From: a virus
Virus record (IMG/VR): IMGVR_UViG_3300045988_016398
Location: 1-38,798 of that record
Direction: 5' to 3' (one strand)
Length of the DNA stretch: 38,798 bases
Position numbers and translations under genes: made by a program
In this document: positions 142 through 20,202 of the stretch, piece by piece
How positions within the stretch are numbered: position 1 is the first letter of the stretch
Layout of the letters: every line of letters starts with the position of its first letter
The notes under the pieces: generated by a model
What the model saw: only the letters and a program-made list of their open reading frames with translations
Database searches by the model: none
Told to the model about the DNA's origin: nothing

Positions 142-280
142 CGGACTAGCCGGGTTTGATTATCCGGCTATACGTACAGTGGCTGAGATTAATAACATTA
201 ATCTAAATCCGATGTTATTTAGTCTTATGTGGATATTGGAGGGATTAGAAATGGAGGCGATGAATAAGGATGTCGAATAA
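2..280 (+). CDS. 3' part of the tail assembly chaperone T-frame ORF (5' part lies at 38626..38798; wraps across the contig junction)
   Basis: The frame is continuous through the terminal repeat. The ORF track shows only M at 95, but the frame is open from nt 2. The stop at 278-280 overlaps the tape measure start at 270. Confidence 0.7.
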   Translation, partial: CKELQTATKQSFDCSECDFNPPRLLFGSKQALRLYNLSRSQRNYHSGGLAGFDYPAIRTVAEINNINLNPMLFSLMWILEGLEMEAMNKDVE

Positions 281-3200: not shown

Positions 3201-3521
3201 ACAGGCAACAGCTTTGGTAAGTTTGCAAGCGGTGGTATTGCTCCTGCAGGCATGACATTAGTTGGTGAGAATGGTCCAGAGCTCTTACAGTTCAACTCTT
3301 CTCATCGCATTTACAATGCAAGCCAAACACGTAAGATGATTGGCGGTGAAGGAGCTAATAAAGTAACGGTTAACATCATCAATCAATCTGGCCAACAACT
3401 GGATAGCCAACAGCAAGAAACTAAGTTCGATGGCGAACAAATGATAGTTGATGTAGTAGTATCTAGTCTTATGACAAACAAAGGAGGTATGCGTGATGCC
3501 ATTAAGGCAGCCGCAGTATAG
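270..3521 (+). CDS. Tail tape measure protein with an embedded NlpC/P60-like peptidoglycan hydrolase domain
   Basis: A 1083-aa ORF lies directly after the G/T chaperone pair. It has long Ala/Lys/Glu-rich coiled-coil stretches and a Gly-rich C-terminus. An internal block reads GKKYVLGAEGDWATDCGKLF...GDGVVVLGDNHVVIADGNG (Cys/His pattern). Confidence 0.9.
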   Translation: MSNNVVDIVVQLTDKNAKAGLEKIAATSKGTVAELSKLKNEMFAIGASAGLAGLGSKLAKEALAWNLSVKKMQSLTGATAEQASTFLSVANYMGVATDVSTVAFAKFAKAVSNAQDKMQVASAEGKLATDMFSRLGVSIDQIEGKNTLEVFKIIQDRLRNMKDGAEKTRVEMELFGKTGYQLHGMLNMSADAMKQVEDRARAMGLIIDDEAAKKSAAFNRQLKDMEQTGKRLAIMIGQELLPVVMEYAQGAIDLTKSYSNLATEQKEAISGLIKFGLEASIAITGIQSITSALKFMRLATIAAAGPWLALATAIGLAGKALLDYRYKEQTKGTDLGVDVNGLRAHKNLNTPGTNSAYMANHDGRYWVEDSSLFGLIKNDRLATKEEGAQIDAAIKAKEAADAAKKKAEEEQEKLQKEIDDAKNGLTNNEAINKANEEASKAAKAQEAAAKKAEQAAEKLASSVERLNELIRSLTLQSLEIDGSQYEIDKLNAKNQYETNNKNIREIIRSAAGLNGGGGTGQASSVLDAANAQLGKKYVLGAEGDWATDCGKLFADSIRESFGISTPRYVPDIMRDARAVGAWHDVGDGYVPKAGDGVVVLGDNHVVIADGNGGYTGANSHGPGGVGPGQVLQSSSIEGDFGTATGYVDTALYAKAYGGNVGGGWGSSVDALKNANAKALANSNLVAEAKAKNEEVYQKKLEEADRNQKIRVRKMNEEISKLDLERTGDRLQLLKTEAEAQKAQIDDNVREYTKAVGDKTLAEKRANAEKLKITAETNQKIRELAYTQLNEDSERQSNLVRLGRISQSDADQVLNEQLRAYIEFAQRELNEAQLSATQRLQVEKNLVEAQQKLWEIAGRNLRTSLAEGARQYSLEVVNYGDLAKSTFDSTMSSINSSFTSHLEAMATGTESFGKGLKNIFKDITNSIIKMLVNLSFQQYVQPKLQSLFGGVVSGIGAIGAGRGGVSSFASGGSFSSAFTGNSFGKFASGGIAPAGMTLVGENGPELLQFNSSHRIYNASQTRKMIGGEGANKVTVNIINQSGQQLDSQQQETKFDGEQMIVDVVVSSLMTNKGGMRDAIKAAAV

Positions 3522-4466: not shown

Positions 4467-4788
4467 CCTAGTAGGTACTCCGTGGAAAGAGTTGCCTTGT
4501 TGGGAGCTTGTGGTAGAGGTGTACAAGAGAGCGGATATTCAACTAGGCCCATATATGACATATTGGCCAGATATGAACTCTCCCTGGCACGAAGTCAAGG
4601 AGCCGGAAGTAGGGGACATAATTGTCATGAACCTCTACGGTAATAATGCTGATCATATCGCAGTGTATGTAGGCGAAGGTAAGATGATACATTCTACCGA
4701 ATATGCGGGTGTGTGTATCGTACCAATGGACAGATTAAGAAAACGTATATTAGGAGTGTACAGGCACAAGGAGGCTCAAAATGATTAG
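4447..4788 (+). CDS. Tail tip NlpC/P60-domain protein (lambda gpK-like, lacking the MPN half)
   Basis: The sequence contains WKELPCWELVVEVY...GDIIVMNLYGNNADHIAVYVGEGKMIHS (Cys/His NlpC/P60 pattern). The preferred start is ATG 4447 with a GGGGG RBS. The track ORF begins at 4411. Confidence 0.6.
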   Translation: MRLTLNNLVGTPWKELPCWELVVEVYKRADIQLGPYMTYWPDMNSPWHEVKEPEVGDIIVMNLYGNNADHIAVYVGEGKMIHSTEYAGVCIVPMDRLRKRILGVYRHKEAQND

Positions 4789-7700
4789 ATTAGTAATTGC
4801 TCGAAACCCATTCGACCTTACCACTAGACAAGAGACTCTTGTCCCTTTTGTTAAAGGTAAGACACTCAACCAATATTTCACTGAACCAGGTGAATGGGTG
4901 TACTCCATAAATGGTGAGTTAGTAGATGATACCGCATCACCTACAGACGAAGCCTATGTAGTGGTATTACCTAAACTTGAAAAACAAGCATTCGCTATCT
5001 TGTTATCTATTGGTCTATCGATAGCGACTGCCGGTATCGCCTCAGGGGCGATATTCGGTATTACAAGCGTATTAGGTCGTACGTTAGCAGCAATGGCCAT
5101 AGGTATGATTGGTAATGCGATCATATCTAAAATAGCTACACCTAAGACAGATAGCTCTAATACAGAGCAGTCAGCTACCTATGGGTGGCAAGGTGCACAG
5201 ACTGTTATTGGCCAAGGTCATCCTTTAGCTATTACCTACGGTAAGTGTAAAAGTGCGGGTATGCTTATATCTCGCCATGTGACAAGTGACGGTGAAAAAC
5301 AATATCTTAACCTATTATACTGTGCGGGTGAGGGGCCTATTGACGCTATAACGGACGTTAAATTAAATGGTAACCCTATCGGTAACTATAAGGAAGTTCA
5401 ACTCGATGTAAGACTAGGTACGAACGACCAAGAGATTATCCCTAATTTCAATGATAACTATGCTGACCAACCTTTGACGTATGAGCTTACCAACGACTGG
5501 TCAATTCATCAAACGCAAGGTAACTTATCTACTGCACTAGAGGTTACTATATCACTTCCTAACGGCTTGTATTACTCAAATGACCAGGGCGGATTAAGTG
5601 AAACCTCGGTCACTATTGAAGGTGGCTATCGTAAAGTTGGCTCTGCAGAGTGGATACCATTACCGATTAGTAACAATGGTGGCCAAAGTGCCATGCTTGA
5701 AAAGACAGATAATCGCTGGTTTAAACGCAATAGTCATTCAAGAACGTCTATCGATAATAGTCAATATACTGGCGTTATCAAGGATAGTTCAAATAAAGCC
5801 ATCTATCGTGTGTTCCGGTTCGATGTAAAGGAACCAGGGCAATATGAAGTCCGTATGCGATGTGCACATAAGGACGGTAATTCTAACCGCCATGTGAACA
5901 AAGTATATTGGTCGCAGTTAACTCAGATTGTCTATGATGATTTCATTCATCCTGGTAAGGTTCTTATCGGTATTAAAGCATTAGCTACTGACCAATTAAA
6001 TGGTAATGATCCAAACGTAACATGGATACAAGAGCGTAAAACAGTATGGGTATTTAATACCTACACTGGGGCGTATGAGTCTAAACCGGCTAATAACCCG
6101 GCGTGGGCTTGCTACGATATTCTTCATCATTGCCGTAAGATTGGCGATGAGTATGTAGTCAAAGGCGCTCCTCGTGAACGCTTCGTATATGACGCATTTA
6201 AGGCGTGGGCCGATAAGTGCGATGAAAAGCATATTACATTTAACTACATTTACGATAATGCTAGCCAAGTATGGGATGCACTTAAATACGCTGAGAATGT
6301 AGGTAGAGGTAAAGTAATACCTTTAGGTACTCGATTCAGTTGTATTTACGACTATGCGGCTACACCTACTCAGCTATTTACTGTAGGTAATATCAAGATG
6401 GACTCATTCATGGAAGAGTTCCAGGCTACATCATCTAGGGCAAACGCTATCGAGGTATCATTCCTCAATAAAGCTAAAGACTATGAGCGTGACGTGCTTC
6501 CTGTATTTAGTGAAGAGTATGACGTGACTACATCGCTCACCAGTCCTGCGCAAGTCGAACTCATGGGATGTGTGGATGTAGATCAAGCCTACAATTATGC
6601 TAAACACTACCTAAGAGCGAATAAGTACGAGGTGCGTACTTGTACCTTTGAAGCTTTTACAGACGCCATAGCGTGCACGATAGGGGATGTAATCCTGTTA
6701 CAGCATGATGTGACAGACTGGGGACAAGGTGGCCGTGTAGAGTCTGCTGTAGGTAATAAAGTAACTCTTGATAGAGAGGTTACTTTTGAGCAAGGCAAGA
6801 CCTATCGCCTTATGGTGCGTAACGCTAAAACGGATGCATTAGAGTCTTACAACGTAACTGGCGTGACCGGTAAGACCTTAACGCTTGCTAGTAATGCAGT
6901 TATTCAGACAGACGATTTATATACCTATGGTGAGGCAACCAAGGAAGCTAAACCGTTTAGGGTATTATCCATTAGCAAGTCCAACTCTGAAATGACTCGT
7001 AAGATATCCTGTATCGAATACTACCCTGAGTTGTATGCCGGTGATGATGGATCAGTGCCAATCATCGACTACACAACAAAGTCCGATGTAATTAAGGTTA
7101 TTAACTTAGTGCTCTTAGCTGACGTCAAGACATTAAAAGACGGTACTGTACTTTGTGATATCAATGGTACTTGGCAACTGCCACGGGGTAAGGTGGCCAA
7201 AAATATTATCGTGTATTACAAGCCTGTTACCGCTAAAGAGTGGCAACAGTTCAAAGTACTAGATGGCAGTGCTACTAGCGTAACTATTCCAAGTGTAGCT
7301 ACTGACGTTAACTACGACGTTAAGATTGTATGCACCAATAATACTGGTGCTGCGTATGAAGGAGTAGAGCGTGCAGTGTATGTAAGTGGTAAGGAAATAC
7401 CCCCGGCTACACCTAAAGGCTTTAAGGTAACTCAGGACGCAGTAAATAGTAGTGTACTTCATTTATCATGGGAACCTAATACAGAGGCTGACCTACATGG
7501 ATACACACTATATGATGGCAACGATGTAGTGTTAATTAAGCATATAGGCGGTACATCCTACTCATACTTCATTCCTAATACAGGTAATTACCAATTCAAG
7601 CTATCTGCTATTGATACATCTGGTAATGAAAGTGGTAAGGCTGAAGCTCGTATTACTGCGAGTGTATCCGCTGAGAGTGTTGCTACACCTAAAGCACCGG

Positions 7701-9691
7701 CTCGAGGTGAGGTGAAAATCGGTAAGACAATCACAACTGCATGGGACCCAGTAGAGAATACCTACATCGATTACTACGAAGTTCGACTTGATAGTAATGT
7801 TGGACAGTCCAATAATCTATTAGCCAAGACTACAGACATTCGCTCTGAAATTAAGTTATCGGCTCGTAGAGGTGCGGTATTCGTTTACGCACACAATCCT
7901 GTTAAGGGTTATGGTCCTGCTCTTAGACTTGACTATAACGCAGTAGTACCTAAGGCTCCGGCGAATGTCAAAGTAAAAGGCAATATTACAGGCGTGAGCG
8001 TGGTCTTTGATAGTATCCCAGATACTTGTATAGGCGCTAACATTTACATCGGTACAGAGAAGTATTTCGTCACTACAAACGTAAATATGATACCGCATGA
8101 CCCAGGTGTATTTGATGTAAAAGTTGCCTATGTAGATGTATTTGGTGAGGGTACATACTCCAATATTATTGGTAGCTCTGTACCGGCTAGTATCGACCCT
8201 TCGTTAATTAATGCAGAAGCGTTAGGTTTGGCCGATATCGATAGACGTATTAATGAGCTGGATAAGTCTAGCAACCAGTACGCTAAGGCAGTACAAGCTA
8301 TGAGTCATGCACCACAACTTATGCGTGATCCAATTTTTAAATCTGAGTTAGAGATTGCTCCATATACAAAAGATGGGCAACAAATCACAATCAAAAAGCA
8401 AAGACCTTATCCAGAATACCATGACCCAATTACTGGCGGACAATGTGTATTCGTGGCATCAGGGGATACAAAGTATACATCAATCGGATTTGGCGGTATC
8501 AAAATCTTACCTAAAAATAAGCCTTTAGAGGGTCAGTTAAATAACACTTATATTGTCCGCATGCTGGCAAAAGTTAAGCCAGATATGACGATACATTTAA
8601 ATAACAATCATCTCGGTAAAGGCAGTACTTCAGCAGGATTTTTAACCTCTAACCAAGGTACTGACAAACCTGAGGAGTACATATTTTATTGGAAATATGG
8701 AAACGAATGGGATGTAAAAAATAAAGATGGTCGTGATTGTGGATATGTGTATTTCAAAAACAATAGCAATACATTTAATAATCCAAATTTTATAGCCGTT
8801 ATTTATAAAATTGAAGTATTCGCAGTCGATGAATACGATAACAGCCTAGATGATGTTAGGAGCTCAATCACTCAACTAGCCGGTAGTATTGACTCTAAGG
8901 TAACCAACGCTACAAGTGGTATGGCTACACGCATTACTCAGCTAGATAATGCGATTAAATCACAGGTTATTACCGGTGATAAGGTCATGAGTGCCATTAC
9001 TCAATACACAGGCGGGACTAGGATTGACGGTCGGTTATTACACGTAACCGGTGACGCTCTGTTTGACAATAACATCATTACCAATAAGATGTTAGCTGCT
9101 AAGGCAGTGTCTGCAGATAAGTTAAATGTTACTTCTTTAAGCGCTATCTCAGCTAACCTAGGTGAAGTAACAGGCGGTAAGATTATCGGCGGTACGATCC
9201 AAAATAAAACCGGTACATTTAAAGTTGACGCTAACGGTAACATCGTAGGCGCTAATATTACAGGCTCACGTATTGACGCTCAGTCAATCATGCAAGCCGG
9301 TTTCAAGATTCGAAACATTGACGTACAAATCTATAAGGTACGTCATGGTGACTGGTGTCCACTACCAGAAGGGTTTAGCGAAGGTCAATGTACGTTTATT
9401 CCTGTTGGTTATAAAATGACAGAAGATTATAGTGATGTAACAGGAGGTACTAGAGATGGTCGAGAAAAATGGGATATCGCTAATGGGCGAAGGATTGATT
9501 ATTGCACAATGTATTTCCAGTCTAATATATCGAGCGGATATCACGATACTAAGCCAACCATTGGACTAATTGGTCGCAGGGCTGTTTGCCAATCGATATG
9601 GTATAGTTATTTCAGCAATCGAGACGATAACGGCTATCATAAACATATCTCCTTTGGGGAACTATACGTTCTCGTCATTGGTAAAAAGTAG
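4781..9691 (+). CDS. Host specificity / central tail fibre protein (gpJ-like) with an N-terminal gpI-like segment, three FN3-like repeats and a C-terminal receptor-binding region
   Basis: A 1636-aa ORF. Several blocks are colinear with lambda J as I recall it, for example NNPAWACYDILHH and GCVDVDQAYNYAKHYLRANKYEVRTCTFE...GDVILLQHDVTDWGQGGRV. FN3-like repeats start at PPATPKGFKV, PKAPARGEVK and PKAPANVKVK. Confidence 0.85.
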   Translation: MIRLVIARNPFDLTTRQETLVPFVKGKTLNQYFTEPGEWVYSINGELVDDTASPTDEAYVVVLPKLEKQAFAILLSIGLSIATAGIASGAIFGITSVLGRTLAAMAIGMIGNAIISKIATPKTDSSNTEQSATYGWQGAQTVIGQGHPLAITYGKCKSAGMLISRHVTSDGEKQYLNLLYCAGEGPIDAITDVKLNGNPIGNYKEVQLDVRLGTNDQEIIPNFNDNYADQPLTYELTNDWSIHQTQGNLSTALEVTISLPNGLYYSNDQGGLSETSVTIEGGYRKVGSAEWIPLPISNNGGQSAMLEKTDNRWFKRNSHSRTSIDNSQYTGVIKDSSNKAIYRVFRFDVKEPGQYEVRMRCAHKDGNSNRHVNKVYWSQLTQIVYDDFIHPGKVLIGIKALATDQLNGNDPNVTWIQERKTVWVFNTYTGAYESKPANNPAWACYDILHHCRKIGDEYVVKGAPRERFVYDAFKAWADKCDEKHITFNYIYDNASQVWDALKYAENVGRGKVIPLGTRFSCIYDYAATPTQLFTVGNIKMDSFMEEFQATSSRANAIEVSFLNKAKDYERDVLPVFSEEYDVTTSLTSPAQVELMGCVDVDQAYNYAKHYLRANKYEVRTCTFEAFTDAIACTIGDVILLQHDVTDWGQGGRVESAVGNKVTLDREVTFEQGKTYRLMVRNAKTDALESYNVTGVTGKTLTLASNAVIQTDDLYTYGEATKEAKPFRVLSISKSNSEMTRKISCIEYYPELYAGDDGSVPIIDYTTKSDVIKVINLVLLADVKTLKDGTVLCDINGTWQLPRGKVAKNIIVYYKPVTAKEWQQFKVLDGSATSVTIPSVATDVNYDVKIVCTNNTGAAYEGVERAVYVSGKEIPPATPKGFKVTQDAVNSSVLHLSWEPNTEADLHGYTLYDGNDVVLIKHIGGTSYSYFIPNTGNYQFKLSAIDTSGNESGKAEARITASVSAESVATPKAPARGEVKIGKTITTAWDPVENTYIDYYEVRLDSNVGQSNNLLAKTTDIRSEIKLSARRGAVFVYAHNPVKGYGPALRLDYNAVVPKAPANVKVKGNITGVSVVFDSIPDTCIGANIYIGTEKYFVTTNVNMIPHDPGVFDVKVAYVDVFGEGTYSNIIGSSVPASIDPSLINAEALGLADIDRRINELDKSSNQYAKAVQAMSHAPQLMRDPIFKSELEIAPYTKDGQQITIKKQRPYPEYHDPITGGQCVFVASGDTKYTSIGFGGIKILPKNKPLEGQLNNTYIVRMLAKVKPDMTIHLNNNHLGKGSTSAGFLTSNQGTDKPEEYIFYWKYGNEWDVKNKDGRDCGYVYFKNNSNTFNNPNFIAVIYKIEVFAVDEYDNSLDDVRSSITQLAGSIDSKVTNATSGMATRITQLDNAIKSQVITGDKVMSAITQYTGGTRIDGRLLHVTGDALFDNNIITNKMLAAKAVSADKLNVTSLSAISANLGEVTGGKIIGGTIQNKTGTFKVDANGNIVGANITGSRIDAQSIMQAGFKIRNIDVQIYKVRHGDWCPLPEGFSEGQCTFIPVGYKMTEDYSDVTGGTRDGREKWDIANGRRIDYCTMYFQSNISSGYHDTKPTIGLIGRRAVCQSIWYSYFSNRDDNGYHKHISFGELYVLVIGKK

Positions 9692-11416: not shown

Positions 11417-11747
11417 GAAAGTATTTAAATCTGTTAGGGTGGCCAACATCCACCCTACAGGCGTATTAGCGACGAGGGCATTAGTCCTCGTCATGCTAGT
11501 ACCTATTATGTTAGTAGTCATCGAATATGTAATGGCGTTCGCCACAGGGTATGTATCCGATGAAACAGGGAAATTAATTAGCACAGGTATTAACATTATT
11601 GACCATATCTTTATACCAAGCGTACTAACTGCCCTTGTAGGGTTCTTAGCACTTTGGATAGATAAGGACGGTAACGGTGTACCTGATAAGCTAGAAGGGA
11701 GTAACAATGAAAGTATGTATCAATCCGGGTCACGACGTGAACCTTGA
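11382..11747 (+). CDS. Holin (two predicted TM segments)
   Basis: A GGGAGGAG RBS precedes the start. Hydrophobic segments are ALVLVMLVPIMLVVIEYVMAFA and IFIPSVLTALVGFLALWI, with a charged C-terminus. The gene lies immediately upstream of, and overlaps, the amidase gene. Confidence 0.65.
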   Translation: MIIPPRLMDSAKKVFKSVRVANIHPTGVLATRALVLVMLVPIMLVVIEYVMAFATGYVSDETGKLISTGINIIDHIFIPSVLTALVGFLALWIDKDGNGVPDKLEGSNNESMYQSGSRREP

Positions 11748-12225
11748 TAGTGGTGCAGTTAACCCTCGCACTGGACGTCGTGAATGTGACGTCGCACTCG
11801 AAGCCGGTGAACTTCTCCAAACATACCTAAATCAAGCCGGATGTCAAACGGTGCTTGTACAAGACGATGACCTTGGTTACGTCTGCCATGTATCTGATGA
11901 TTTTGATGCGGATATCTTTGTATCCTTACACTGTAACGCATTCAATACTCAGGCACGTGGTACTGAAACACTATATAAGTCTTTTAATGGTCAACGATTG
12001 GCTAATGATATTCAAAGCCAAATCATCCGCAGCATTAACACCGTAGACCGTGGCGTTAAGAAACGTGATGACCTTTGGGTACTCAACGGAACTAACGCAG
12101 TAGCAGTTCTCGTAGAAATGGCATTCATCGATAATGACGATGATTTAGAAATGCTTAACAATGACCTTGATACGATTGTCCGTGCTATCGCTAGGGGGAT
12201 AACAGACTACACAGGAGGCGTATAA
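11707..12225 (+). CDS. Endolysin, N-acetylmuramoyl-L-alanine amidase (Amidase_3 type)
   Basis: The pattern MKVCINPGHD...DIFVSLHCNAF...GTETLY...AVLVEMAFIDN is typical of zinc amidases of the CwlD/Amidase_3 type. There is no signal peptide. Confidence 0.85.
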   Translation: MKVCINPGHDVNLDSGAVNPRTGRRECDVALEAGELLQTYLNQAGCQTVLVQDDDLGYVCHVSDDFDADIFVSLHCNAFNTQARGTETLYKSFNGQRLANDIQSQIIRSINTVDRGVKKRDDLWVLNGTNAVAVLVEMAFIDNDDDLEMLNNDLDTIVRAIARGITDYTGGV

Positions 12226-12707
12226 TGTATGAGAAAATCAAGACTACACTTACTAGCTATCCTAAGCTTTATTATGTTATCGGTGCTATTGTGCTCCTAT
12301 CCGTCTTTTGCCTCTGGTACATCTTCTATCAGCCAAGTGGAGCAGACTATCAGCGTACCCTTAACACAGTGGAACGAATTGAAAGCCAACAACGAGAAAG
12401 CATTAAGATTAATCGAGACATCCAGTCTGCCATTGGCCGAAGCTCAAAGCTTGGTCATGAAGCAAAGGGAAGAATTGAACGAAGCACACAATACAATCAC
12501 AAAATTGGAGAACGAATTACAAACAGCCAAGGTAGACTTAATGAAGCAAGAAGTTACCTTGAACGAAATGCAGAACTCTTTAGACGTATTGAAGAACAAG
12601 GTCGAGAACGACAAGAAAACTATCAAACGTCTACGGATGCAACGCAACCTATCCCAGGTGATAGGGGCGGGAGCGATAATCGGAATATCGATTCGACGAT
12701 GAAATAG
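12225..12707 (+). CDS. Spanin-like protein, frame A: N-terminal TM anchor and a charged helical periplasmic domain (i-spanin-like); may be real or a shadow of frame B
   Basis: The ATG overlaps the amidase stop (TAATG), and the same RBS lies 6 nt upstream. The TM segment is LYYVIGAIVLLSVFCLWYIFY. Nine of 17 Arg codons are CGA, which looks like an off-frame echo of AAC-GAA in frame B. Confidence 0.35.
   Translation: MYEKIKTTLTSYPKLYYVIGAIVLLSVFCLWYIFYQPSGADYQRTLNTVERIESQQRESIKINRDIQSAIGRSSKLGHEAKGRIERSTQYNHKIGERITNSQGRLNEARSYLERNAELFRRIEEQGRERQENYQTSTDATQPIPGDRGGSDNRNIDSTMK
12229..12702 (+). CDS. Spanin-like protein, frame B: signal peptide (possible lipobox Cys22), Leu-heptad coiled coil and C-terminal TM segment
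   Basis: An AGGAGG RBS lies 10 nt upstream. The N-terminus is MRKSRLHLLAILSFIMLSVLLCSYPSFA|SG. A long heptad coiled coil follows (ELNEAHNTITKLENELQTAKVDLMKQEVTLNEMQNSLDVLKNKVEN). The C-terminus is VIGAGAIIGISIRR. Codon usage looks more natural than in frame A. Confidence 0.5.
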   Translation: MRKSRLHLLAILSFIMLSVLLCSYPSFASGTSSISQVEQTISVPLTQWNELKANNEKALRLIETSSLPLAEAQSLVMKQREELNEAHNTITKLENELQTAKVDLMKQEVTLNEMQNSLDVLKNKVENDKKTIKRLRMQRNLSQVIGAGAIIGISIRR

Positions 12708-13058: not shown

Positions 13059-13083
13059 GTTGCTCAACCGTTGCACAACCTTT
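13059..13083 (+). repeat. Tandem GTTGCTCAACC / GTTGCACAACCTTT motifs, copies 2 and 3, abutting the int stop codon
   Basis: Direct reading of the sequence. Copy 3 overlaps the integrase stop at 13082-13084. Confidence 0.5.
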
Positions 13084-14131
13084 AACTAAATGATGACGGT
13101 ATTTTATTTACTTCTTCGATGTACTGCTCAATCGTTTTATGGGTATACACATCTGCAGTAATGTCTTTACTTTGTGTGTGGCCAACAATAGCTTTTAGCA
13201 CGTAACGATCCATTCCATAATTACTGGCCAAGGTTACAAACGTATGTCTAGTATCGTGTGGTAAGTGGTCAGATATACCGACCTCTTTACAAAATCGTTT
13301 TATTGGCTTTCCTAGGTACTTTGACGTGTACCCTTGAGGGATAAGTGTATCGGATTTAGAAACGCTCGTCTTGGCGTAAATTTCGCGATAAAAAGGCATA
13401 ACGCAGTCGGCAATAGGTATTAATCTATCCTTGCCGGCTTTTGTTTTTACACCACCAATGATATATCGTTCCTCCAGGTGCACGTTTTCAAGTTTGATGG
13501 ATAGCAGCTCTATCGGGCGCATACCGGAGTAGATATACATTAATAGGAGCTTGGCTATATCCATGTGAGCATGTTCCCATATGGTTTGAATTTCAGCCTC
13601 TGTAAATGGCTTATGTATGTCTGACTTCTCGGCCGGTTTTAACTCTAGGAGTGCTGCATAGTTCTTAACGATGATATCGTTCTTAATAGCGGACTCAAAG
13701 GCGCCATTCAATCCTTTTAATATGATAGCTATAGATGAGCGACTTAAATGGCTATTTTCATCAATTATAGCTTGTAGGTGCACGAGTTTAATTTCTTGTA
13801 TAGGTTTATTCCAAATCGATGTTAACTTCGCTTGTGCGGTCGAATATCCGCCTTTTTTGACATCTATTCCTTTTCGTTCTTTGTCAGCTATCATCCAACG
13901 CCAACATTCACTAAACAATACCTTCTTCGTCTCGAACTTCTCTGGGTAGATACCATACTCTGATAAGGCGTCCCATGCTTCTTTTGATTTAGCATAATAG
14001 CCAATCGTCTTACGTTTACACTTGCCGGTCTCATCGTAGCCAATCGTTACGACTGCACGGTAAGGCTTGCGTAAAGGTTTATGTTTCATTTTGTAAACGG
14101 ATCCAGAACCGTTCGCTCGTTTCATTGCCAT
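13082..14131 (-). CDS. int: Tyrosine recombinase, phage integrase
   Basis: A 349-aa ORF with an N-terminal SAM-like domain and catalytic-type motifs: GMRPIELLSI, HDTRHTFVTLA and GHTQSKDITADVYTH. It lies adjacent to the non-coding att-like region. Confidence 0.9.
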   Translation of the reverse strand: MAMKRANGSGSVYKMKHKPLRKPYRAVVTIGYDETGKCKRKTIGYYAKSKEAWDALSEYGIYPEKFETKKVLFSECWRWMIADKERKGIDVKKGGYSTAQAKLTSIWNKPIQEIKLVHLQAIIDENSHLSRSSIAIILKGLNGAFESAIKNDIIVKNYAALLELKPAEKSDIHKPFTEAEIQTIWEHAHMDIAKLLLMYIYSGMRPIELLSIKLENVHLEERYIIGGVKTKAGKDRLIPIADCVMPFYREIYAKTSVSKSDTLIPQGYTSKYLGKPIKRFCKEVGISDHLPHDTRHTFVTLASNYGMDRYVLKAIVGHTQSKDITADVYTHKTIEQYIEEVNKIPSSFS

Positions 14132-14300: not shown

Positions 14301-14696
14301 TTATTTAAACTTAATCTGTTTTTCTTGACCTCCAAGATAGTAGGTAACTGTTGGCTTCACTTCACTTAGTACTTTGGCCACACCTGGCTGTACTGGTGCT
14401 ACATAAATGTGGTGATGATAGAAGGAATGAGGGAACATATCTAAACGATATGCAGGCGGTACATCTTTTACGATTAACCACTTAGCATCTACAGACTTAC
14501 CATTGTCTAAGGTAATCTTAGACTCATAGCCACCTGTAGCAGACAATATAGTCCAATCCTCTAACACTACCTGGGTAGTAGTTTGGCCAAGAACTGATTC
14601 ATCCTTTAACTCAATAGATGGGGAAGGCTTAAGTAAGAATACTAACCCCACGCACACAACAATAATGATAGGTATAATAGCTAGTTTTAGTTTCAT
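14301..14696 (-). CDS. Membrane-anchored exported protein in the lysogeny operon (candidate superinfection-exclusion factor)
   Basis: An N-terminal hydrophobic anchor (MKLKLAIIPIIIVVCVGLVFLL) is followed by a beta-rich soluble part. The gene is co-oriented with the repressor and ImmA-like genes. Confidence 0.55.
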   Translation of the reverse strand: MKLKLAIIPIIIVVCVGLVFLLKPSPSIELKDESVLGQTTTQVVLEDWTILSATGGYESKITLDNGKSVDAKWLIVKDVPPAYRLDMFPHSFYHHHIYVAPVQPGVAKVLSEVKPTVTYYLGGQEKQIKFK

Positions 14697-14708
14697 GATA
14701 TATCTCCC

Positions 14709-14981
14709 TTAGTTATCAATGAAATGGTGGTAAAACTGAATAAATTCTAGCTCACTTTCATTTAGTGATGATCGTCTTACCATCTGTTCAACGATGTTGA
14801 CATGATGGTCTATATAGAAGTCATCATTAAGAATATGAGTCAGTTCGTGCTTAATCTGTTCGCGTAGTTTCTCTTGTGACAAATTTTTATTGACATAGAT
14901 ATTATGTGTGTCACAATCTGCTGAACCCTCTACAACAGCATCTACGAAAGGCAATTCACAATGAATAATATTTACTACCAA
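14709..14981 (-). CDS. ImmA/IrrE-like zinc metallopeptidase (short, 90 aa)
   Basis: An HExxH motif (IKHELTHIL) is preceded by NIYVNKNLS. The gene lies directly downstream of the XRE repressor, as in ImmR/ImmA pairs. Confidence 0.6.
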   Translation of the reverse strand: MVVNIIHCELPFVDAVVEGSADCDTHNIYVNKNLSQEKLREQIKHELTHILNDDFYIDHHVNIVEQMVRRSSLNESELEFIQFYHHFIDN

Positions 14982-15000
14982 GCTAACACTCCCTTGTGTA

Positions 15001-15381
15001 TTATTTGTTTTTAAGTTTTAGTAGCTCAATGTATTCAACAGCCTTCTCCATATCCTCCTTACTAATATCCTTTGCAGCAGAAAATAGCATGTGTGCATCT
15101 GGACGTGTGCGTAGATACTCTGCAAACGCTGCAGTCTCAGCGTCAACGTAATACCCTTTGCGTTCATGAGGGAGTGTGATTGGCTCTCCAACATTGGCTA
15201 AATCTTCTGGACTGATATGTAAACCTCTACATATTTTAATAATATTATCTATTGATGCACCTCCCACATTACGCAATATGGAAAACAATGTTGAAGAAGG
15301 CATCCCTATGTTAGCGGCGAATTCTCGCTGAGTCATCCCATATTCTTTAATCTTAGCTTTTAAATAATCTTCTCTAGTCAT
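15001..15381 (-). CDS. XRE-family HTH repressor (CI/ImmR-like)
   Basis: An N-terminal HTH (MTQREFAANIGMPSSTLFSILRN) is present. The gene is divergent from the cro-like gene across a region containing operator repeats. Confidence 0.8.
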   Translation of the reverse strand: MTREDYLKAKIKEYGMTQREFAANIGMPSSTLFSILRNVGGASIDNIIKICRGLHISPEDLANVGEPITLPHERKGYYVDAETAAFAEYLRTRPDAHMLFSAAKDISKEDMEKAVEYIELLKLKNK

Positions 15382-15624
15382 GATAATAGCTCCCTATTAA
15401 TTAACTATATATGTAAATTATAATATGTACTGTCTGATATTCCAATAATGAGTTATGAATTTTTATATATAAATCCGATATTTTAATATTTAATTATATT
15501 TAAACTAAACTTCAACAACTGTTTATTGGACATGTCCGAAATATAAAGCTATACTAAAGCCATAGAGATATCCGAAATATCGGACATCAAATATACTTTT
15601 CATAACTAAGGAGGTGAAGAACTA
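15382..15624. promoter_or_regulatory. Divergent immunity-region promoters with repeated operator motif GTCCGA(A/T)AT(A/T)T
   Basis: Copies are at 15432-15443 (GTCTGATATTCC), 15473-15484 (ATCCGATATTTT) and 15534-15545 (GTCCGAAATATA). A dyad copy lies at 15571-15585 (TCCGA-AATA-TCGGA-C). Confidence 0.65.
15526..15555 (+). promoter_or_regulatory. Candidate early rightward promoter (-35 TTGGAC, 18-nt spacer, -10 TATACT)
   Basis: The hexamers were read directly. One operator copy lies in the spacer and the dyad copy lies just downstream. Confidence 0.5.
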
Positions 15625-15819
15625 ATGTATCCAAATCTTAACGCAGAACTAGCTCGTAAAGGCTGGACACGTAAAGACTTAGCGAGAGAGACTGGGCTTA
15701 AGTACCAGACGCTCAATGAAAAGATGAATGGCAAGCGTCCATTTACCTTCCCCGAAGCGGTACTGGTTAAGAAAGCATTGTCTACTGAGCTTGATCTCGA
15801 ACAAATTTTTTTAACTTAA
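15625..15819 (+). CDS. Cro-like XRE-family HTH protein
   Basis: A 64-aa ORF with an AAGGAGG RBS and the HTH KDLARETGLKYQTLNEKMNG. It is the first gene of the rightward operon. Confidence 0.8.
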   Translation: MYPNLNAELARKGWTRKDLARETGLKYQTLNEKMNGKRPFTFPEAVLVKKALSTELDLEQIFLT

Positions 15820-15821
15820 TT

Positions 15822-15834
15822 GTCCGATATTTCG
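15822..15834 (+). promoter_or_regulatory. Extra operator copy (GTCCGATATTTCG) downstream of cro
   Basis: This is a 13-nt exact match to the reverse complement of the dyad operator at 15573-15585. Confidence 0.5.
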
Positions 15835-15852
15835 TACACGGAGGTATTCACT

Positions 15853-16074
15853 ATGAAACAACAAGTACCGGACATTGCTCCAGTAGTCGCAGCATTAGAT
15901 AGGTTTATTATTACAACCTTAGATAATGGCTACTTGGAAGAAGTCCAATGTGTAAGTGATCTAATCAACGCAAGGGTCACTTTGGTATCAACTCATCAAC
16001 AAATGACTAGCAAAGAACGGGAGTTACCGATTAGAAAAGGTGGCCAACCAATCTACGCTAGACGTACAAAATAA
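15853..16074 (+). CDS. Hypothetical early protein
   Basis: ATG 15853 has a GGAGG RBS. The track ORF starts at TTG 15820, which sits on the operator copy and is less likely. Confidence 0.55.
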   Translation: MKQQVPDIAPVVAALDRFIITTLDNGYLEEVQCVSDLINARVTLVSTHQQMTSKERELPIRKGGQPIYARRTK

Positions 16075-16159
16075 CCCCATCGGTACCGGACATACCGACA
16101 GGGCCAATCAAATAATAATTCGATTAACTTAAGTATACAACAACGAAAGGTATTTATCC

Positions 16160-17671
16160 ATGAATAAAACAATTTTAATGACAGCAACAATCGCATCCTT
16201 AGCAGTAAACGTAATGGCTGCTAATAACAATACTTTGGCAGGCACGGACAATAACATCACCGCTACTTCCCATAGCTCAATGGTATCTGGCTATAAAAAT
16301 ACTATCGACGCTAACAACGCACTAGCATTTGGTACTAACAATACAGTAACTGGTGAAAATGGTTTTGCCGGCGGTAATAACGCTACTGCAGCAGGTCGTA
16401 ACTCCTTCGCCTTTGGCTCTCACGCTGAAAGCCTAGTGGAATACACTGTGGCAATCGGTAACCAAGCAAGAACCGCTTCCTATGATAGCGTGGCTATCGG
16501 CAATGGTGCCTTCGTATCTGGTGAATCCAGTGTGGCGCTAGGTAGAACCAATAACGTTACTGGCGAAAACTCCGTAGCGATCGGTGCCAACAATGGGACT
16601 GTAGCAGGTGGCCAATCCGCCGTAGTTGGCTATAACAACAAAATTGGTTCCCAAAAGGAACAGCTAGTGTTCGGATCTAATTCCGAATCTAGTGGCCAAG
16701 GCGCATTGGTATTTGGTACACATGCTAAATCAGTAGCAACCGATGCTATCGCATTTGGTAACAATACAATCTCTGATAAGCCTAACGCAGTGGCCATTGG
16801 TACTAATGCAGTCACTGACGATGCAGTCGGTGTTGATGGTGTAGACCTTAATGGTACACGCCATATCTTTGCAGGAGAACAACCTGCCAGTGTGGTTAGC
16901 TTCGGTGCTCGTGGTAGAGCAGGTGCAGGTAGTATTAAATATTATAACCGTCAGCTCCAAAATGTAAGCGCCGGCCGTGTAGAGGCTGACAGTTTGGACG
17001 CTGTTAACGGCAGCCAATTATACGCTGCGTACGATGAAATTAATACCATTGGAGGCACAGTAAATGGACATACTCAACAAATTAATCGAAATGCTAATAA
17101 TATTGGCGCTAACACTAACCGCATTAATAACCTTGAAGGCGCTGTTAACACTAACGCTACTGCTATTAACAATCTAGCAGGTGCGCTTACTACTACCCAA
17201 GGTCAAGTAAAAGTAAATACAAAAGACATTGCAGACCTTAAAGGCAAAACAGATGCTAATACTAATGCTATTAGCCAAGTAAATGATCGTGTGTCTGACA
17301 CTAATCAACGTATCGATAACTTAGGGAACAGCTTTAATAATGTATCTCAACGCATGAATAAATTAGGTGCAAGCTCCGCAGCATTAGCAGGTCTACATCC
17401 TCTTGAATACAACAAGAATGATAAAGGTAACTTCGCTATTAGCTATGGTCATTACCGCAACGCAAATGCCGTAGCACTTGGTGCGTTCTATAGCCCTAAT
17501 GAAAAAGTACGCTTAGGCTTCGGTATAACACTAGGTGGTGAAACTCAATTCAATATCAATGCTGCGTTCCGTACTGGTAAAGGTTCTGAATATGAACCAC
17601 AAGCTAAGAATGGTGAGCTCGAACAACTTCGTAAGGAAGTAGCTGAATTGAAAGCATTAGTTACTAAATAA
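16160..17671 (+). CDS. Trimeric autotransporter adhesin (YadA-like head repeats, neck, stalk, beta-barrel anchor) with a post-anchor coiled-coil extension
   Basis: The signal peptide is MNKTILMTATIASLAVNVMA|A. It has many head-type repeats (NSFAFG, YTVAIG, DSVAIG, SSVALG, NSVAIG, NAVAIG) and a neck (VEADSLDAVNGSQLYA). The stalk is Asn-rich. The anchor reads LAGLHPLEY...NFAISYGHYRNANAVALGAFYSP...LGFGITLGGETQFNINAAFRTG. A C-terminal tail follows: GELEQLRKEVAELKALVTK. Confidence 0.85.
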   Translation: MNKTILMTATIASLAVNVMAANNNTLAGTDNNITATSHSSMVSGYKNTIDANNALAFGTNNTVTGENGFAGGNNATAAGRNSFAFGSHAESLVEYTVAIGNQARTASYDSVAIGNGAFVSGESSVALGRTNNVTGENSVAIGANNGTVAGGQSAVVGYNNKIGSQKEQLVFGSNSESSGQGALVFGTHAKSVATDAIAFGNNTISDKPNAVAIGTNAVTDDAVGVDGVDLNGTRHIFAGEQPASVVSFGARGRAGAGSIKYYNRQLQNVSAGRVEADSLDAVNGSQLYAAYDEINTIGGTVNGHTQQINRNANNIGANTNRINNLEGAVNTNATAINNLAGALTTTQGQVKVNTKDIADLKGKTDANTNAISQVNDRVSDTNQRIDNLGNSFNNVSQRMNKLGASSAALAGLHPLEYNKNDKGNFAISYGHYRNANAVALGAFYSPNEKVRLGFGITLGGETQFNINAAFRTGKGSEYEPQAKNGELEQLRKEVAELKALVTK

Positions 17672-17681
17672 GGAGGTAGCC

Positions 17682-17921
17682 ATGATAAAGAAAACAATAG
17701 CAGTTAGCCAAATGGCTACTGTACTTGGATGGACACTAACGGCGGTACGTGAATGTATCGCCAGGGACAAGTTTCCATTCGCTCAATGTTGGAACTGCCA
17801 AGGTAAGAAAGGCAGAACATTTTCTATTGATAAAGAGGGCTTCCGGTTCTACCTAGCTAACACGCTAGGATGGACAGCTAGCCGTATTGATAAAGAGTTC
17901 AAAGAGGCTCATATTCATTAA
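17682..17921 (+). CDS. Small DNA-binding protein (excisionase/HTH-like); function uncertain
   Basis: A GGAGG RBS precedes the start. VSQMATVLGWTLTAVRECIARDKFPF resembles excisionase-type HTH proteins. Confidence 0.4.
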   Translation: MIKKTIAVSQMATVLGWTLTAVRECIARDKFPFAQCWNCQGKKGRTFSIDKEGFRFYLANTLGWTASRIDKEFKEAHIH

Positions 17922-17940
17922 TTAAACGAGGTGTATAGAA

Positions 17941-18126
17941 ATGCTTACAACAATAAAAATAGTTGGCTTCATCTTAATCATCGGAGCTATGGGTTCCCTA
18001 GAACTTGACCGAGTGACATTCGGTGGCTATTTAATGCAAATCATGTTAGGTGGCTTAATGATCATATCAGCTAACCAACATGAACGTATTACATATCTAA
18101 AGAGGCAGTTACATGGCACACACTGA
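17941..18126 (+). CDS. Small membrane protein (two TM segments)
   Basis: A 61-aa ORF with a GAGGTG RBS. Hydrophobic segments are IVGFILIIGAMGSL and YLMQIMLGGLMIISA. Confidence 0.5.
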   Translation: MLTTIKIVGFILIIGAMGSLELDRVTFGGYLMQIMLGGLMIISANQHERITYLKRQLHGTH

Positions 18127-18358
18127 AAGAAATTTTAGATTGCGCCAAGATGTGTTTTACAAGCTGTGGAACGATAAGTCAGATGAGTTCAAAACTCAAA
18201 AGGCTATCCAGGATGCATCTAAGTTATCAAAGTCTACCATTAGACGGTTACTACTTGGTAACCGGGTAGACTACAACACAGCTCATGCCATAGCTAAGGT
18301 ATTTAAGGTTGAAATACCTGTATTGTTTGGTGAGGTGATTAGCTATGAAAGACTATAG
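18113..18358 (+). CDS. XRE-like HTH protein
   Basis: The sequence KTQKAIQDASKLSKSTIRRLLLGNRVDYNTAHAIAKVFKVEIPVLF follows the same HTH pattern as Cro and the next gene. Confidence 0.6.
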   Translation: MAHTERNFRLRQDVFYKLWNDKSDEFKTQKAIQDASKLSKSTIRRLLLGNRVDYNTAHAIAKVFKVEIPVLFGEVISYERL

Positions 18359-18824
18359 TGGTCCACAGCCAGTTATCCATATGGCTGTACTAAGAAAGGG
18401 ATTCGACATAAAGCAGTTAGTATATGAACGTACACCATACGGCTTCGTTGCCTGGTGCCAAGAAATAGGTATCAGCCCTAACATTGTAAAGCTAAATCGC
18501 GGTGAGTGTTGCCGTATATCTACTGCTGAACTCATAGCTAAGAAATTACGAATGTCCTTTAATTGCTTATTTAAACGAACAACCATAAAACAAAACTCAT
18601 GGGGCAATAGATTCGGATATAAGTTAAAGCATGATGAATTCAAATCCTTACTAGCTAAAAGGAAGCTAAATGTACAAGGCACTGCTGAAATATGTGGTAT
18701 CCACTACGTCACGCTATACACCTATTTAAGGAATAAGAGTGTAGCCAGGTTTACGACCGCTGTGCAAATAGCCGATAGGCTTAAAGTTCCAATCGAAACA
18801 ATATTCCAAGTACAAGATTACTAA
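18345..18824 (+). CDS. Protein with two tandem XRE-like HTH modules
   Basis: There are two copies of the ...TA..IA..L.....(L/I)F pattern: ISTAELIAKKLRMSFNCLF and TTAVQIADRLKVPIETIF. Confidence 0.55.
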   Translation: MKDYSGPQPVIHMAVLRKGFDIKQLVYERTPYGFVAWCQEIGISPNIVKLNRGECCRISTAELIAKKLRMSFNCLFKRTTIKQNSWGNRFGYKLKHDEFKSLLAKRKLNVQGTAEICGIHYVTLYTYLRNKSVARFTTAVQIADRLKVPIETIFQVQDY

Positions 18825-18843
18825 TACAAGAAAGGTAAATATA

Positions 18844-20202
18844 ATGGACAAAATTAAAATCAATTCTTTTGAATTGGAAAACGTGAAACGCGTTAAAGCG
18901 GTATCTTATGAACCTACAGAAAATGGCCTAACCGTCATCGGTGGTAAGAATGGCCAAGGTAAAACGTCTATTTTAGATGCCATCGCATGGGCGCTTGGTG
19001 GAGCTAAATTTGAACCATCCAGTGCTGCACGTGAAGGCAGTTATAATCCACCTAAATTAGAAGTAAAGCTATCCAATGGCCTCGTGGTAACACGAACTGG
19101 TGCTAACAGCACACTTAAGGTATTGGATCCAGAAGGTAAGAAATCTGGCCAAAAGATTTTAGATACTTTCATTGGTCAATTAGCCTTAGACCTTCCGAAG
19201 TTCATGGAAATGAGCGACAAAGAAAAGGCTAATGAGTTACTTCAATTATTAGGCGTAGAAGACGAGTTAAAGAAACTCGAGGGTGAATACCAAGAGGTAT
19301 ACGCTAAACGTCATTCTATAGGCCAAATTGCAAGCCAAAAAGACAAATACGCTAAAGAGTTACCTGCGTATGATGAAGTTCCACAAGAACCTATCAGTGC
19401 ATCGGAACTTATTAAACAGCAACAAGATATCCTACTTCGCAACGCTGAGAACCAAAAGAAACGTAATAACGTATCCGCTATTAAGGCTCAGATGGTGACT
19501 GTGAATAACTTAGTCGATGAAGCTCAACGAAAGTTAGAGGAACTTCAAGCTAAGCAGACACAACTAGCTGAAGATTATGATATCGCAACGACTGCAGCTA
19601 AAGACTTAGAGGACGAATCTACAGCAGAACTTGAAGAACAAATCAAGAATGTAGATGAAATCAACTCTAAAGTACGTGCTAACCAAGAACGCCAACGTGC
19701 ATTACAAGAAGCTGCAGACTTTAAGCAAGAATACGATGAGTTGACGGATGACATTCAAGACATCCGTGATCGTAAAAATAAATTGCTTGAATCTGTGGAT
19801 ATGCCACTACCAGGGTTATCTATCCAGGAAGGGGTACTTATCTACAACGGTAAACAATGGGACTGCATGAGCGGTGCTGAACAGCTCAAAGTAGCGACTG
19901 CTATTGTACGAGCACTTAACCCTAAATGTGGATTTGTATTGATGGACAAGATGGAACAGATGGACATCGATACGATGAAAGAATTCGGTGGTTGGTTAGA
20001 ACAAGAAGGCTTGCAAGTTATTGCGACTCGTGTTACCAACAACCTGGATGAATGTTCCATCATCATTGAAGATGGCCACATTAAAGGTGAGGAATTCAGT
20101 ACTACAGGTAAGACTACTAAGACTAAATCTAAACCTAAGGCAGAACCTAAAAAAGATGTAACAGAAGAACCTAAAGTAACAGATGATTGGGGTGAATTTT
20201 AA
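18844..20202 (+). CDS. SMC/Rad50-like AAA ATPase (recombination module)
   Basis: The ORF has a Walker A (GGKNGQGKTSILDAI), a central coiled coil, a signature-like SGAEQ and a Walker B-like GFVLMD. The Lys/Pro/Thr-rich tail ends in DDWGEF. Confidence 0.75.
   Translation: MDKIKINSFELENVKRVKAVSYEPTENGLTVIGGKNGQGKTSILDAIAWALGGAKFEPSSAAREGSYNPPKLEVKLSNGLVVTRTGANSTLKVLDPEGKKSGQKILDTFIGQLALDLPKFMEMSDKEKANELLQLLGVEDELKKLEGEYQEVYAKRHSIGQIASQKDKYAKELPAYDEVPQEPISASELIKQQQDILLRNAENQKKRNNVSAIKAQMVTVNNLVDEAQRKLEELQAKQTQLAEDYDIATTAAKDLEDESTAELEEQIKNVDEINSKVRANQERQRALQEAADFKQEYDELTDDIQDIRDRKNKLLESVDMPLPGLSIQEGVLIYNGKQWDCMSGAEQLKVATAIVRALNPKCGFVLMDKMEQMDIDTMKEFGGWLEQEGLQVIATRVTNNLDECSIIIEDGHIKGEEFSTTGKTTKTKSKPKAEPKKDVTEEPKVTDDWGEF

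Follow-up and report, generated by a model that had tools for sequence, protein, structure and literature searches.

Trimeric autotransporter adhesins (TAAs) are the proteins of secretion type Vc: Sec exports them, a 12-strand outer-membrane barrel is assembled from three chains with four strands apiece, and the passenger reaches the cell surface. The prototype is YadA of Yersinia, a plasmid-encoded, collagen-binding protein with 14-residue left-handed beta-roll repeats, a neck, a coiled-coil stalk and a four-strand anchor. The same parts are found in the product of an open reading frame (ORF) of 503 amino acids (aa) plus a stop codon, starting with ATG, at positions 16160–17671 on the + strand of virus record IMGVR_UViG_3300045988_016398 (IMG/VR). 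The whole stretch analysed, 38,798 nucleotides (nt) and here called the window, is a complete temperate phage of the siphovirus type. We conclude that this ORF encodes a complete, Veillonella-type TAA, and the overall reading that we consider moderately likely is that the adhesin is made together with the phage early genes upon infection or induction.

The closest described systems are the Vta TAAs of Veillonella parvula, which share with the window protein both the genus and the order of domains (signal, in the window protein a putative one, YadA head, stalk, YadA anchor and extra coiled coil). All V. parvula TAAs carry a coiled coil after the anchor, as the earlier note on this DNA had stated for that species, and classical proteobacterial TAAs end at the anchor (PMC7549365). 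The Vta proteins were compared by description; their genes as described are chromosomal, lying in an adhesin cluster or scattered, none is reported as phage-borne, and phages are mentioned in neither of the two Vta papers (PMC7549365; bioRxiv 10.64898/2026.01.22.700529). In V. parvula SKV38 vtaB was induced together with a prophage cluster (PMC11633186); since vtaB lies in the chromosomal adhesin cluster, no link to the phage-borne TAAs could be made.

Prophage-encoded TAAs are not a new category, because EibA, C, D, E, F and G of Escherichia coli provide a precedent (PMC8065619, table and reference 174; PMC3368898 lists prophage P-EibA). The Eib proteins are proteobacterial TAAs, and EibD (2xqh) aligned with the window protein at an E-value of 0.0064 with no significant stretch, which by sequence places the latter outside the Eib group. 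The Eib proteins end at the anchor and are not known to have a periplasmic tail; their genes lie beside tail-fibre genes at the late end of lambdoid prophages, whereas the window gene is part of the early operon; and they are expressed in lysogens under host control (IbrAB). The more general concept of a phage-encoded envelope protein is represented by Llp of T5 and Cor of φ80 and N15. It is shared by Lom and Bor of lambda, listed as prophage factors in PMC8065619. All four are small beta-barrels or lipoproteins, folds unrelated to that of a TAA, and their effects comprise adhesion, serum resistance and phage adsorption. An exclusion role for the window TAA may be put forward as a hypothesis. 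Virome surveys have recorded KEGG TAA matches in temperate viral contigs (PMC10578192), and some relatives are already labelled YadA-like in database records. Our search, limited to one library of papers, retrieved none describing phage-borne TAAs in Veillonella or in any diderm Firmicute. New points are the lineage of the host, how large and how constrained the phage-resident family is, the fact that its genes consistently lie in the early operon and lack their own transcription unit, and its extension to jumbo-sized viral contigs.

The identification of the protein rests first on two Pfam profiles, both of which scored above their curated cutoffs: YadA_head (PF05658; E 1.9e-18, 66.7 bits against a cutoff of 25, in six stretches) and YadA_anchor (PF03895; aa 416–469, E 7.4e-08, 32.8 bits against 22.7). 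The third profile named in the earlier note, YadA_stalk (PF05662), had no match reported by Pfam for the window protein and is recorded for its 74–79% identical relatives. Among the NCBIfam models those for the autotransporters EmaA, YadA, BimA, Vomp and Ata gave partial matches only. Significant sequence matches in the PDB (phmmer) were to TAAs only, the top one being Fusobacterium nucleatum CbpF [9gh4; 3.4e-18], followed by others including BpaC, the YadA head [1p9h; 7e-08], UspA1 and the YadA anchor [2lme; 1.1e-06]. CbpF (9GH4/9GH5) is similar in size (479 aa) and possesses a beta-roll head, a neck and a barrel (PMC12012533). Its neck aligns with that of the window protein, and the approximately 48 residues that follow its predicted barrel (378–431) align with the tail of the latter. 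It differs in being chromosomal and from another phylum, and its post-barrel part is not resolved in the structure. The heads align weakly (domain E-values 0.3–0.6), and binding to CEACAM1 can therefore not be deduced for the window TAA.

The domain anatomy can be followed along the translation. The N-terminus (aa 1–20, 16160–16219; MNKTILMTATIASLAVNVMA, followed by A) looks, by eye, like a Sec-type signal, with MNK, a 15-residue hydrophobic core (TILMTATIASLAVNV; inspection and hydropathy) and a V-M-A cleavage motif. It is followed by a head (aa 21–260, 16220–16939) of about 16 fourteen-residue beta-roll repeats of the YadA type, which are evident from the Pfam matches and from the periodicity of the sequence (at lags of 14 and 28 residues the identity is 0.26 and 0.24, respectively, over a background of about 0.08 at other lags). 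The neck (aa 261–300, 16940–17059) contains the motif VEADSLDAVNGSQLYA, which begins at aa 274 (nt 16979–17026). The coiled-coil stalk (aa 301–415, 17060–17404) is rich in Asn (23 of 115 residues) and is the most variable segment of the protein, and the YadA-type four-strand membrane anchor (aa 416–472, 17405–17575) has NINAAFRTG (aa 465–473) at its end. The 31 residues of the post-anchor tail (aa 473–503, 17576–17668) consist of a linker and a heptad helix (GELEQLRKEVAELKALVTK) with Leu or Val at all five of its a/d positions. An AlphaFold2 (AF2) model of the monomer (mean predicted local distance difference test score, pLDDT, 62) contains a beta head (pLDDT 70–89), a single long helix (285–409; pLDDT 74–86), four strands of low pLDDT (427–470) and a terminal helix (486–502). 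The low confidence of the anchor strands is expected for a monomer, since the barrel exists only in the trimer. A Foldseek search of the PDB with this model gave no match at E ≤ 0.001, only weak ones, including tailspikes, of which none was significant; the search says nothing either way, since a single chain modelled out of an interleaved trimer is unlike the chains derived from solved trimers. The 12-strand-barrel homotrimer with a surface-displayed passenger is predicted from what is known of type Vc proteins. The earlier note had read from the letters a complete TAA with a signal (still judged by eye only), YadA-type head repeats, a neck, an Asn-rich stalk, a four-strand anchor ending in NINAAFRTG and about 31 further residues with a heptad helix; each of these parts is where it was placed, the profile and PDB matches and the AF2 architecture agree, and the product is almost certainly a functional surface TAA.

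The tail, which had been singled out as a special feature, proved to be ordinary for the lineage. A periplasmic extension is present in 99.8% of Negativicutes TAAs, and a short class has been described with more than 10 and fewer than 100 residues after the barrel, mainly coiled coil, and no SLH or OmpA domain (bioRxiv 10.64898/2026.01.22.700529). With 31 residues after NINAAFRTG, a heptad pattern, an AF2 helix at 486–502, no SLH or OmpA match in Pfam, and its closest genomic copies in prophages of Veillonella, the window protein falls into this short class, as do the Vta TAAs of V. parvula. The tail is kept in all 88 distinct phage TAAs that were extracted, in two main sequence types, both heptad-patterned. 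The post-anchor coiled coil is thus the norm of the lineage and does not distinguish the window protein.

This bears on the tethering of outer membrane to peptidoglycan suggested in the earlier note, a role in which the tail would stabilise the envelope of the infected cell. Certain Negativicutes TAAs do have SLH domains, and Streptobacillus TAAs OmpA domains, which are thought to bind peptidoglycan (PMC7549365; bioRxiv 10.64898/2026.01.22.700529), but the tail of the window protein is only 31 aa long with neither domain, and belongs to the class composed of coiled coil alone. Moreover, V. parvula TAAs deprived of the periplasmic domain undergo significant degradation, with trimerization and secretion unblocked (bioRxiv 10.64898/2026.01.22.700529), and the strongest conservation is in the surface head and neck rather than in the tail. 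We regard a tether as highly unlikely.

The host of the phage is Veillonella, as judged from its relatives. The closest genomic copies of the TAA gene, up to 91% identical, are on uncultured Veillonella contigs (metagenome-assembled genomes), and V. atypica KON ATCC 17744 carries a 62% identical copy in the same kind of prophage, adjoining apparent host genes. Beside another prophage copy are metabolic genes that look like those of a host (AMP-binding, MR_MLE and 4HBT families). The guess of a Negativicute host was accordingly correct, and the closest homologues are not confined to monoderm bacteria, an outcome which the earlier note had considered fatal to its proposal. Relatives are numerous: 6993 related sequences were among the candidates scored in the protein database, the best 120 of which are all full-length and 74–79% identical, many of them on contigs of 36–45 kb and a few named "YadA-like protein [Caudoviricetes sp.]". 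IMG/VR yielded 80 loci with TAA relatives at 59–98% identity. A tblastn search of a GenBank-derived phage collection (50,697 records) found no genuine phage relative; the sole match (AGRM01000004.1), 164 kb long and coding for a Hep_Hag protein, is a bacterial contig from Salmonella enterica subsp. houtenae that was misfiled as phage. At the nucleotide level (blastn) the only matches of the window among GenBank phage genomes were replication genes of Streptococcus, Bacillus and Enterococcus phages.

The TAA gene is cargo. IMG/VR was searched with its right-hand neighbour, o79 (17682–17921, +), a 79-aa early ORF with a weak excisionase-like match (phrog_6058; 1e-17), and the adhesin was then sought, counts being given for informative loci. 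The gene was present in 46 and absent from 21 of the loci so anchored; where the replication module was that of the window, the figures were 14 and 7. In alignments of the empty sites the left-hand neighbour o84 (15820–16074, +; 84 aa, an early ORF with no family match) is followed by the same imperfect hairpin (CCCCATCGGTA-CCGGACA-TACCGACAGGG; 16076–16104, +) and A/T-rich spacer and then directly by o79, so that o84 is conserved beside either the TAA gene or o79. Since the empty sites retain the hairpin and the spacer, most of the 85-nt gap upstream of the TAA gene is phage backbone. The cassette itself consists of a leader of about 35 nt with the ribosome-binding site (16126–16159, +; AACTTAAGTATACAACAACGAAAGGTATTTATCC), which is also found in a second context with a different upstream gene, the ORF, and a 10-nt linker (GGAGGTAGCC; 17672–17681, +) that supplies the ribosome-binding site of o79 and forms the right edge. 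The insertion is nearly exact at the level of the ORF. Near-isogenic phages without the gene make the TAA true cargo, as had been proposed.

It is also cargo that recurs at the same kind of place. The gene occurs in at least five unrelated phage backbones and is always tightly packed in the early or replication operon. Context A, that of the window, has the order cro, o84, TAA, o79 on the lytic side of the switch. In context A' there is a different upstream gene and a PcfJ/RecT/DnaC-like replication module. Contexts B and C have the TAA gene between a DUF2800/PD-(D/E)XK exonuclease gene, in one such layout only 3 nt away, and genes for a Gp2.5-like single-stranded DNA-binding protein and then DNA polymerase A. 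Context D is that of V. atypica KON, and in the fifth, a serine-recombinase prophage, the gene follows cI, cro and an antirepressor gene and abuts a Gp157-like gene. Contexts A, A' and D have the same linker of 9–10 nt after the TAA gene. Across the TAA loci the integrases are 22–100% and the repressors (cI) 38–100% identical to those of the window, and there are four or more different replication modules. Among the 88 distinct loci the downstream gap is −4 to 26 nt in nearly all, and the upstream gap is 2–5 nt, −4 nt or 81–88 nt in most. A DUF2827 glycosyltransferase has been reported beside Veillonellales TAAs, and the approximately 380-aa ORF that abuts the TAA gene in many loci was considered for this role; it is in fact the DUF2800/PD-(D/E)XK exonuclease.

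The position of the gene also bears on whether its product could be part of the virion, as a tail fibre, decoration or receptor-binding protein instead of a cell-surface adhesin. Trimeric beta-roll and coiled-coil fibres do resemble phage fibres in general shape, and the weak, non-significant tailspike matches in Foldseek may be counted on the same side. The window, as had been noted from its gene order, has cro on one side of the TAA gene and the replication genes on the other, a long way from the structural module, which possesses its own tape measure protein (270–3521), minor tail proteins and a J-like central fibre of 1636 aa (4781–9691). No BLASTP similarity was found between the TAA and phage tail proteins, near-isogenic phages do without it, and a putative Sec signal together with a YadA anchor, the latter under strong purifying selection with the tail, is hard to reconcile with a virion protein, which we consider very improbable.

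The strength of this selection was measured as the ratio of nonsynonymous to synonymous substitution rates (dN/dS), and for the TAA gene it indicates strong purifying selection. The ratio was 0.04–0.07 in comparisons with seven close relatives (dS 0.39–0.65), and one further close relative with a divergent head gave 0.21. Against distant copies, for which synonymous sites are saturated (dS >1), it was 0.08–0.15, with about 0.06 in the head. In the anchor plus tail dN was 0.00–0.01 against a dS of 0.09–0.60 in close pairs. The match is intact, or cut by the end of a contig, in all but one of the 134 loci with a TAA match. The exception, L102 (3454–4888), has a split match (aa 1–248 at 94% and aa 294–503 at 65% identity) and represents a recombinant or a disrupted gene.

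Conservation is unevenly distributed along the protein. Mean pairwise identity among the 88 distinct phage TAAs was 0.79 in aa 108–260, 0.73 in the anchor and 0.49 in the stalk, and the most conserved block (aa 140–295, 16577–17044, +) comprises the head's C-terminal portion plus the neck, a putative ligand-binding module. Homology searches with this head-neck block, as with the anchor plus tail, retrieved short gene fragments only, and the block was therefore compared by local BLAST against the representatives from the exhaustive search. It is 75–81% identical to the closest phage-context TAA representatives and 51–58% identical to representatives of at least 800 aa, two of which end in SLH-like domains. 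Such ends are also seen in chromosomal Negativicutes TAAs. From these identities the phage copies form an old phage-resident lineage of host type; of the two alternatives that the earlier note had left to BLAST, residence in phages is favoured over recent capture. The conserved module, which scarcely varies between unrelated phage backbones, argues for a single conserved ligand, most likely bound by the C-terminal head plus neck, and against diversification of the head driven by immunity.

The same data dispose of the view that the gene is a neutral hitch-hiker or a decaying capture from a host chromosome, with no function for the phage. Its G+C content might suggest this (0.454 in 16001–17000 against 0.36–0.40 in the flanking kilobases), and so might its dispensability. 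With the dN/dS values above, a head protein conserved between lineages whose synonymous sites are saturated, one split match in 134 loci, and a conserved block closer to phage-context TAAs than to the large ones, a neutral passenger is effectively refuted by the selection analysis, and we assign it the lowest probability of all the alternatives, an extremely small one.

How the gene is expressed decides between the two readings that remain, and here the signals around the switch are relevant. A cI-like helix-turn-helix (HTH) repressor of 126 aa (15001–15381, −; PHROG repressor/regulator families, E 6e-11 to 2e-7) lies on the lysogeny side together with an ImmA-like protein. On the other side is a cro-like HTH protein of 64 aa (15625–15819, +; PHROG repressor families, E 1.7e-9), with which the early rightward operon begins. 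Between them a consensus scan identified a leftward promoter-like site at the position of P_RM (TTGGAA-17-TATAAT, 10/12; 15417–15445, −) and a rightward one at that of P_R (TGGACA-17-TATACT, 10/12; 15527–15555, +), the functions of both being putative. The latter is the most likely source of the TAA transcript, to judge by its position. A 14-bp palindrome (TCCGAAATATCGGA; 15571–15584) lies between the rightward promoter-like site and cro, and a near-copy (TCCGATATTTCGTA; 15823–15836) directly follows the stop codon of cro, where o84 starts; four strand-matches were found against 0.65 expected, a number reached in none of 100 shuffles. The two palindromes may be operators, and through the second one read-through to o84 and the TAA gene could be controlled.

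Downstream of these sites few signals were found. Upstream of the TAA gene the sigma-70 consensus scan revealed only a weak 9/12 promoter-like match, the leader has a poor −10-like TATACA and no −35 box, and there is no + strand terminator-like site in 14900–19000. In the B layout no + strand promoter-like site occurs within 600 nt upstream of the gene and no + strand terminator flanks it. The sequence TWAGTATACAWCA upstream of the gene was considered as a recurring phage promoter and rejected, with 4 matches in the window against about 7 expected. The backbone hairpin at 16076–16104 was likewise rejected as a terminator: it has no + strand U-tract, is present in empty sites too, has a fold z-score of −0.5, and is terminator-like on the − strand only. 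Both the consensus scans and the motif-recurrence test thus bear out the statement of the earlier note that no convincing private promoter is to be seen. Of the two marks of a moron the gene has presence or absence at the same site among close phages, and by the consensus scans it lacks a flanking promoter and terminator of its own. Given the tight packing and the failure of these admittedly crude scans to find a promoter, co-transcription with the early genes is the simplest reading, from which it would follow that the adhesin coats the surface of the infected or induced cell. We consider expression with the early genes fairly likely.

The chief alternative is classical lysogenic conversion, in which the TAA would be expressed from the resting prophage, by an unrecognised promoter or by read-through, and would give the lysogen a gain in adhesion, co-aggregation, biofilm formation or host binding, the phage benefiting only indirectly through host fitness as with the Eib TAAs of E. 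coli lysogens. The gene is optional cargo; it encodes a host-type adhesin in a genus that depends upon TAAs for aggregation and co-aggregation (PMC7549365, PMC11633186); the prophage eib genes are a precedent (PMC8065619, PMC3368898); and CbpF, the nearest solved relative, binds a human receptor (PMC12012533). The conserved leader that travels with the gene points in the same direction. Conversion, however, requires a promoter that the scans did not see, with no promoter- or terminator-like signal flanking the gene; in several layouts the TAA gene lies 2–5 nt from, or overlaps, the upstream replication or recombination gene; it is on the lytic side of the cI/cro switch, while the usual cargo slot between int and cI holds other genes; and the relatives in jumbo-phage-like genomes, described below, are left unexplained. 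We judge conversion possible but rather unlikely.

Several points nevertheless tell against expression with the early genes. The timing is something that we infer from gene position and consensus scans, what the head binds and how the phage profits are matters of pure conjecture, and the scans used a simple sigma-70 consensus which may not describe Veillonella promoters. Promoters inside the upstream coding sequences are possible. The leader, conserved over about 35 to 75 nt and forming a hairpin in some contexts, travels with the TAA gene and could be a regulatory element. Presence/absence polymorphism is also a hallmark of lysogenic-conversion morons, and to our knowledge the only documented prophage TAAs, those of the Eib group, are conversion factors. 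As regards the leader itself, a conserved 9-bp hairpin (GGTAGAGTG-loop-CACTCTACC) immediately precedes the ribosome-binding site in L002, L030–L037, L053 and L182, some 20–50 nt upstream of the start of the TAA gene. It occurs in two unrelated backbones, of which one has a tyrosine integrase and the other a serine recombinase, and in two loop variants; the sole two changes in the stem keep the pairing as G.U. It may be a leader RNA element.

The exhaustive search of representatives, followed by look-ups of genomic context, revealed that phages carry the next-nearest small TAAs as well. P0129 (785 aa) is on a scaffold of 227,672 bp, where its same-strand neighbours specify UvrD, an RNA ligase/kinase fusion (phrog_8238; 8e-165), HU, an SNF2 helicase, Mu Gam, a primase and a Pol III alpha-like polymerase. 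P0125 (519 aa) has surroundings of the same kind and a second TAA next to it in tandem, P0126 is likewise one of a tandem pair, and relatives of P0125 are on many IMG/VR viral contigs of 130–267 kb. The conserved block (aa 140–295) of the window protein is 75% identical to that of P0125, while the stalk, anchor and tail differ. TAA relatives in jumbo-phage-like replication regions were also seen in L178 (8001–10358), L183 (3799–6666) and L204, among other loci; these proteins share the head-neck block, and their coiled coil after the anchor is longer, at about 40 aa (...FKTGGQKQVTRQELEEQIRQLENNNIRMQEELNEIRAMLEKK). Among phage-like contigs, tandem TAA genes occur in L183 (3799–5358 and 5377–6666; 519 and 429 aa) and in L184 (754–2340 and 2556–4487; 528 and 643 aa).

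Taken with the packing within operons, the apparent jumbo contexts favour early lytic expression over the lysogenic conversion suggested in the earlier note, which stays the main rival. They also allow a bolder proposal, that a dedicated phage-resident TAA lineage serves as an early lytic gene in very different Veillonella phages (temperate siphoviruses with tyrosine or serine recombinases and, apparently, jumbo phages), and brings about a virus-directed change of adhesion (for local transmission or shielding) rather than lysogenic conversion. We advance this only tentatively, and think it somewhat improbable as a whole; the jumbo-sized contigs are known from partial sequence, and their virulence and Veillonella host are presumed.

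Under the reading that we prefer, expression with the early genes, the TAA gene would be transcribed from the P_R-like promoter together with cro and the replication and recombination genes. Three chains would form the outer-membrane barrel, through which the beta-roll head, neck and stalk would be threaded to the cell surface, and the short C-terminal heptad helix would stay in the periplasm, protecting the protein from degradation as in V. parvula TAAs. The phage might gain in one of two ways: adhesion or aggregation could keep the infected cell among susceptible neighbours in the biofilm, or the adhesin could sterically mask surface receptors from rival phages. A conversion phenotype might come in addition if lysogens express the gene leakily. 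Any particular one of these benefits is doubtful. The recurrence of TAAs in many Veillonella phages does suggest that the phages alter the surface of infected cells. In human oral and gut biofilms Veillonella is abundant and acts as a bridging organism. If the reading is true, phages would control cell-cell adhesion or surface accessibility in a major human commensal, with a bearing on biofilm structure, on the spread of phages in dense communities and on competition between them. Surveys of adhesin repertoires should allow for some Veillonella TAAs being mobile phage genes. A prophage copy is available in a cultured lysogen, V. atypica KON ATCC 17744, and two Veillonella strains, V. atypica OK5 and V. 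parvula SKV38, are open to genetic work.

The remainder of the window is organized as follows. Downstream of the TAA gene the replication genes specify an SbcC-like ATPase, Sak4, a helicase and a primase, and the packaging and head genes specify the small and large terminase, a portal and a protease-capsid fusion. The last is a 630-aa ORF (33611–35503) which over its full length belongs to the fused 'major head and protease protein' family (phrog_4523; 3e-229). The endolysin gene (11707–12225) is directly followed by two overlapping + strand ORFs in different frames (12225–12707 and 12229–12702; 160 and 157 aa), one of which matches phrog_18860; this is the site where phages of diderm hosts would have spanin-type genes. 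Between the tyrosine integrase gene (13082–14131, −) and the ImmA-like and cI genes is a gene (14301–14696, −) for a 131-aa protein with an N-terminal transmembrane segment (MKLKLAIIPIIIVVCVGLVFLL), in the slot that is the usual site of lysogeny-expressed exclusion proteins. In related prophages (L179–L181) the same slot between int and cI is occupied by a PemK-toxin-like protein of 199 aa or an Abi_2 protein of 343 aa.

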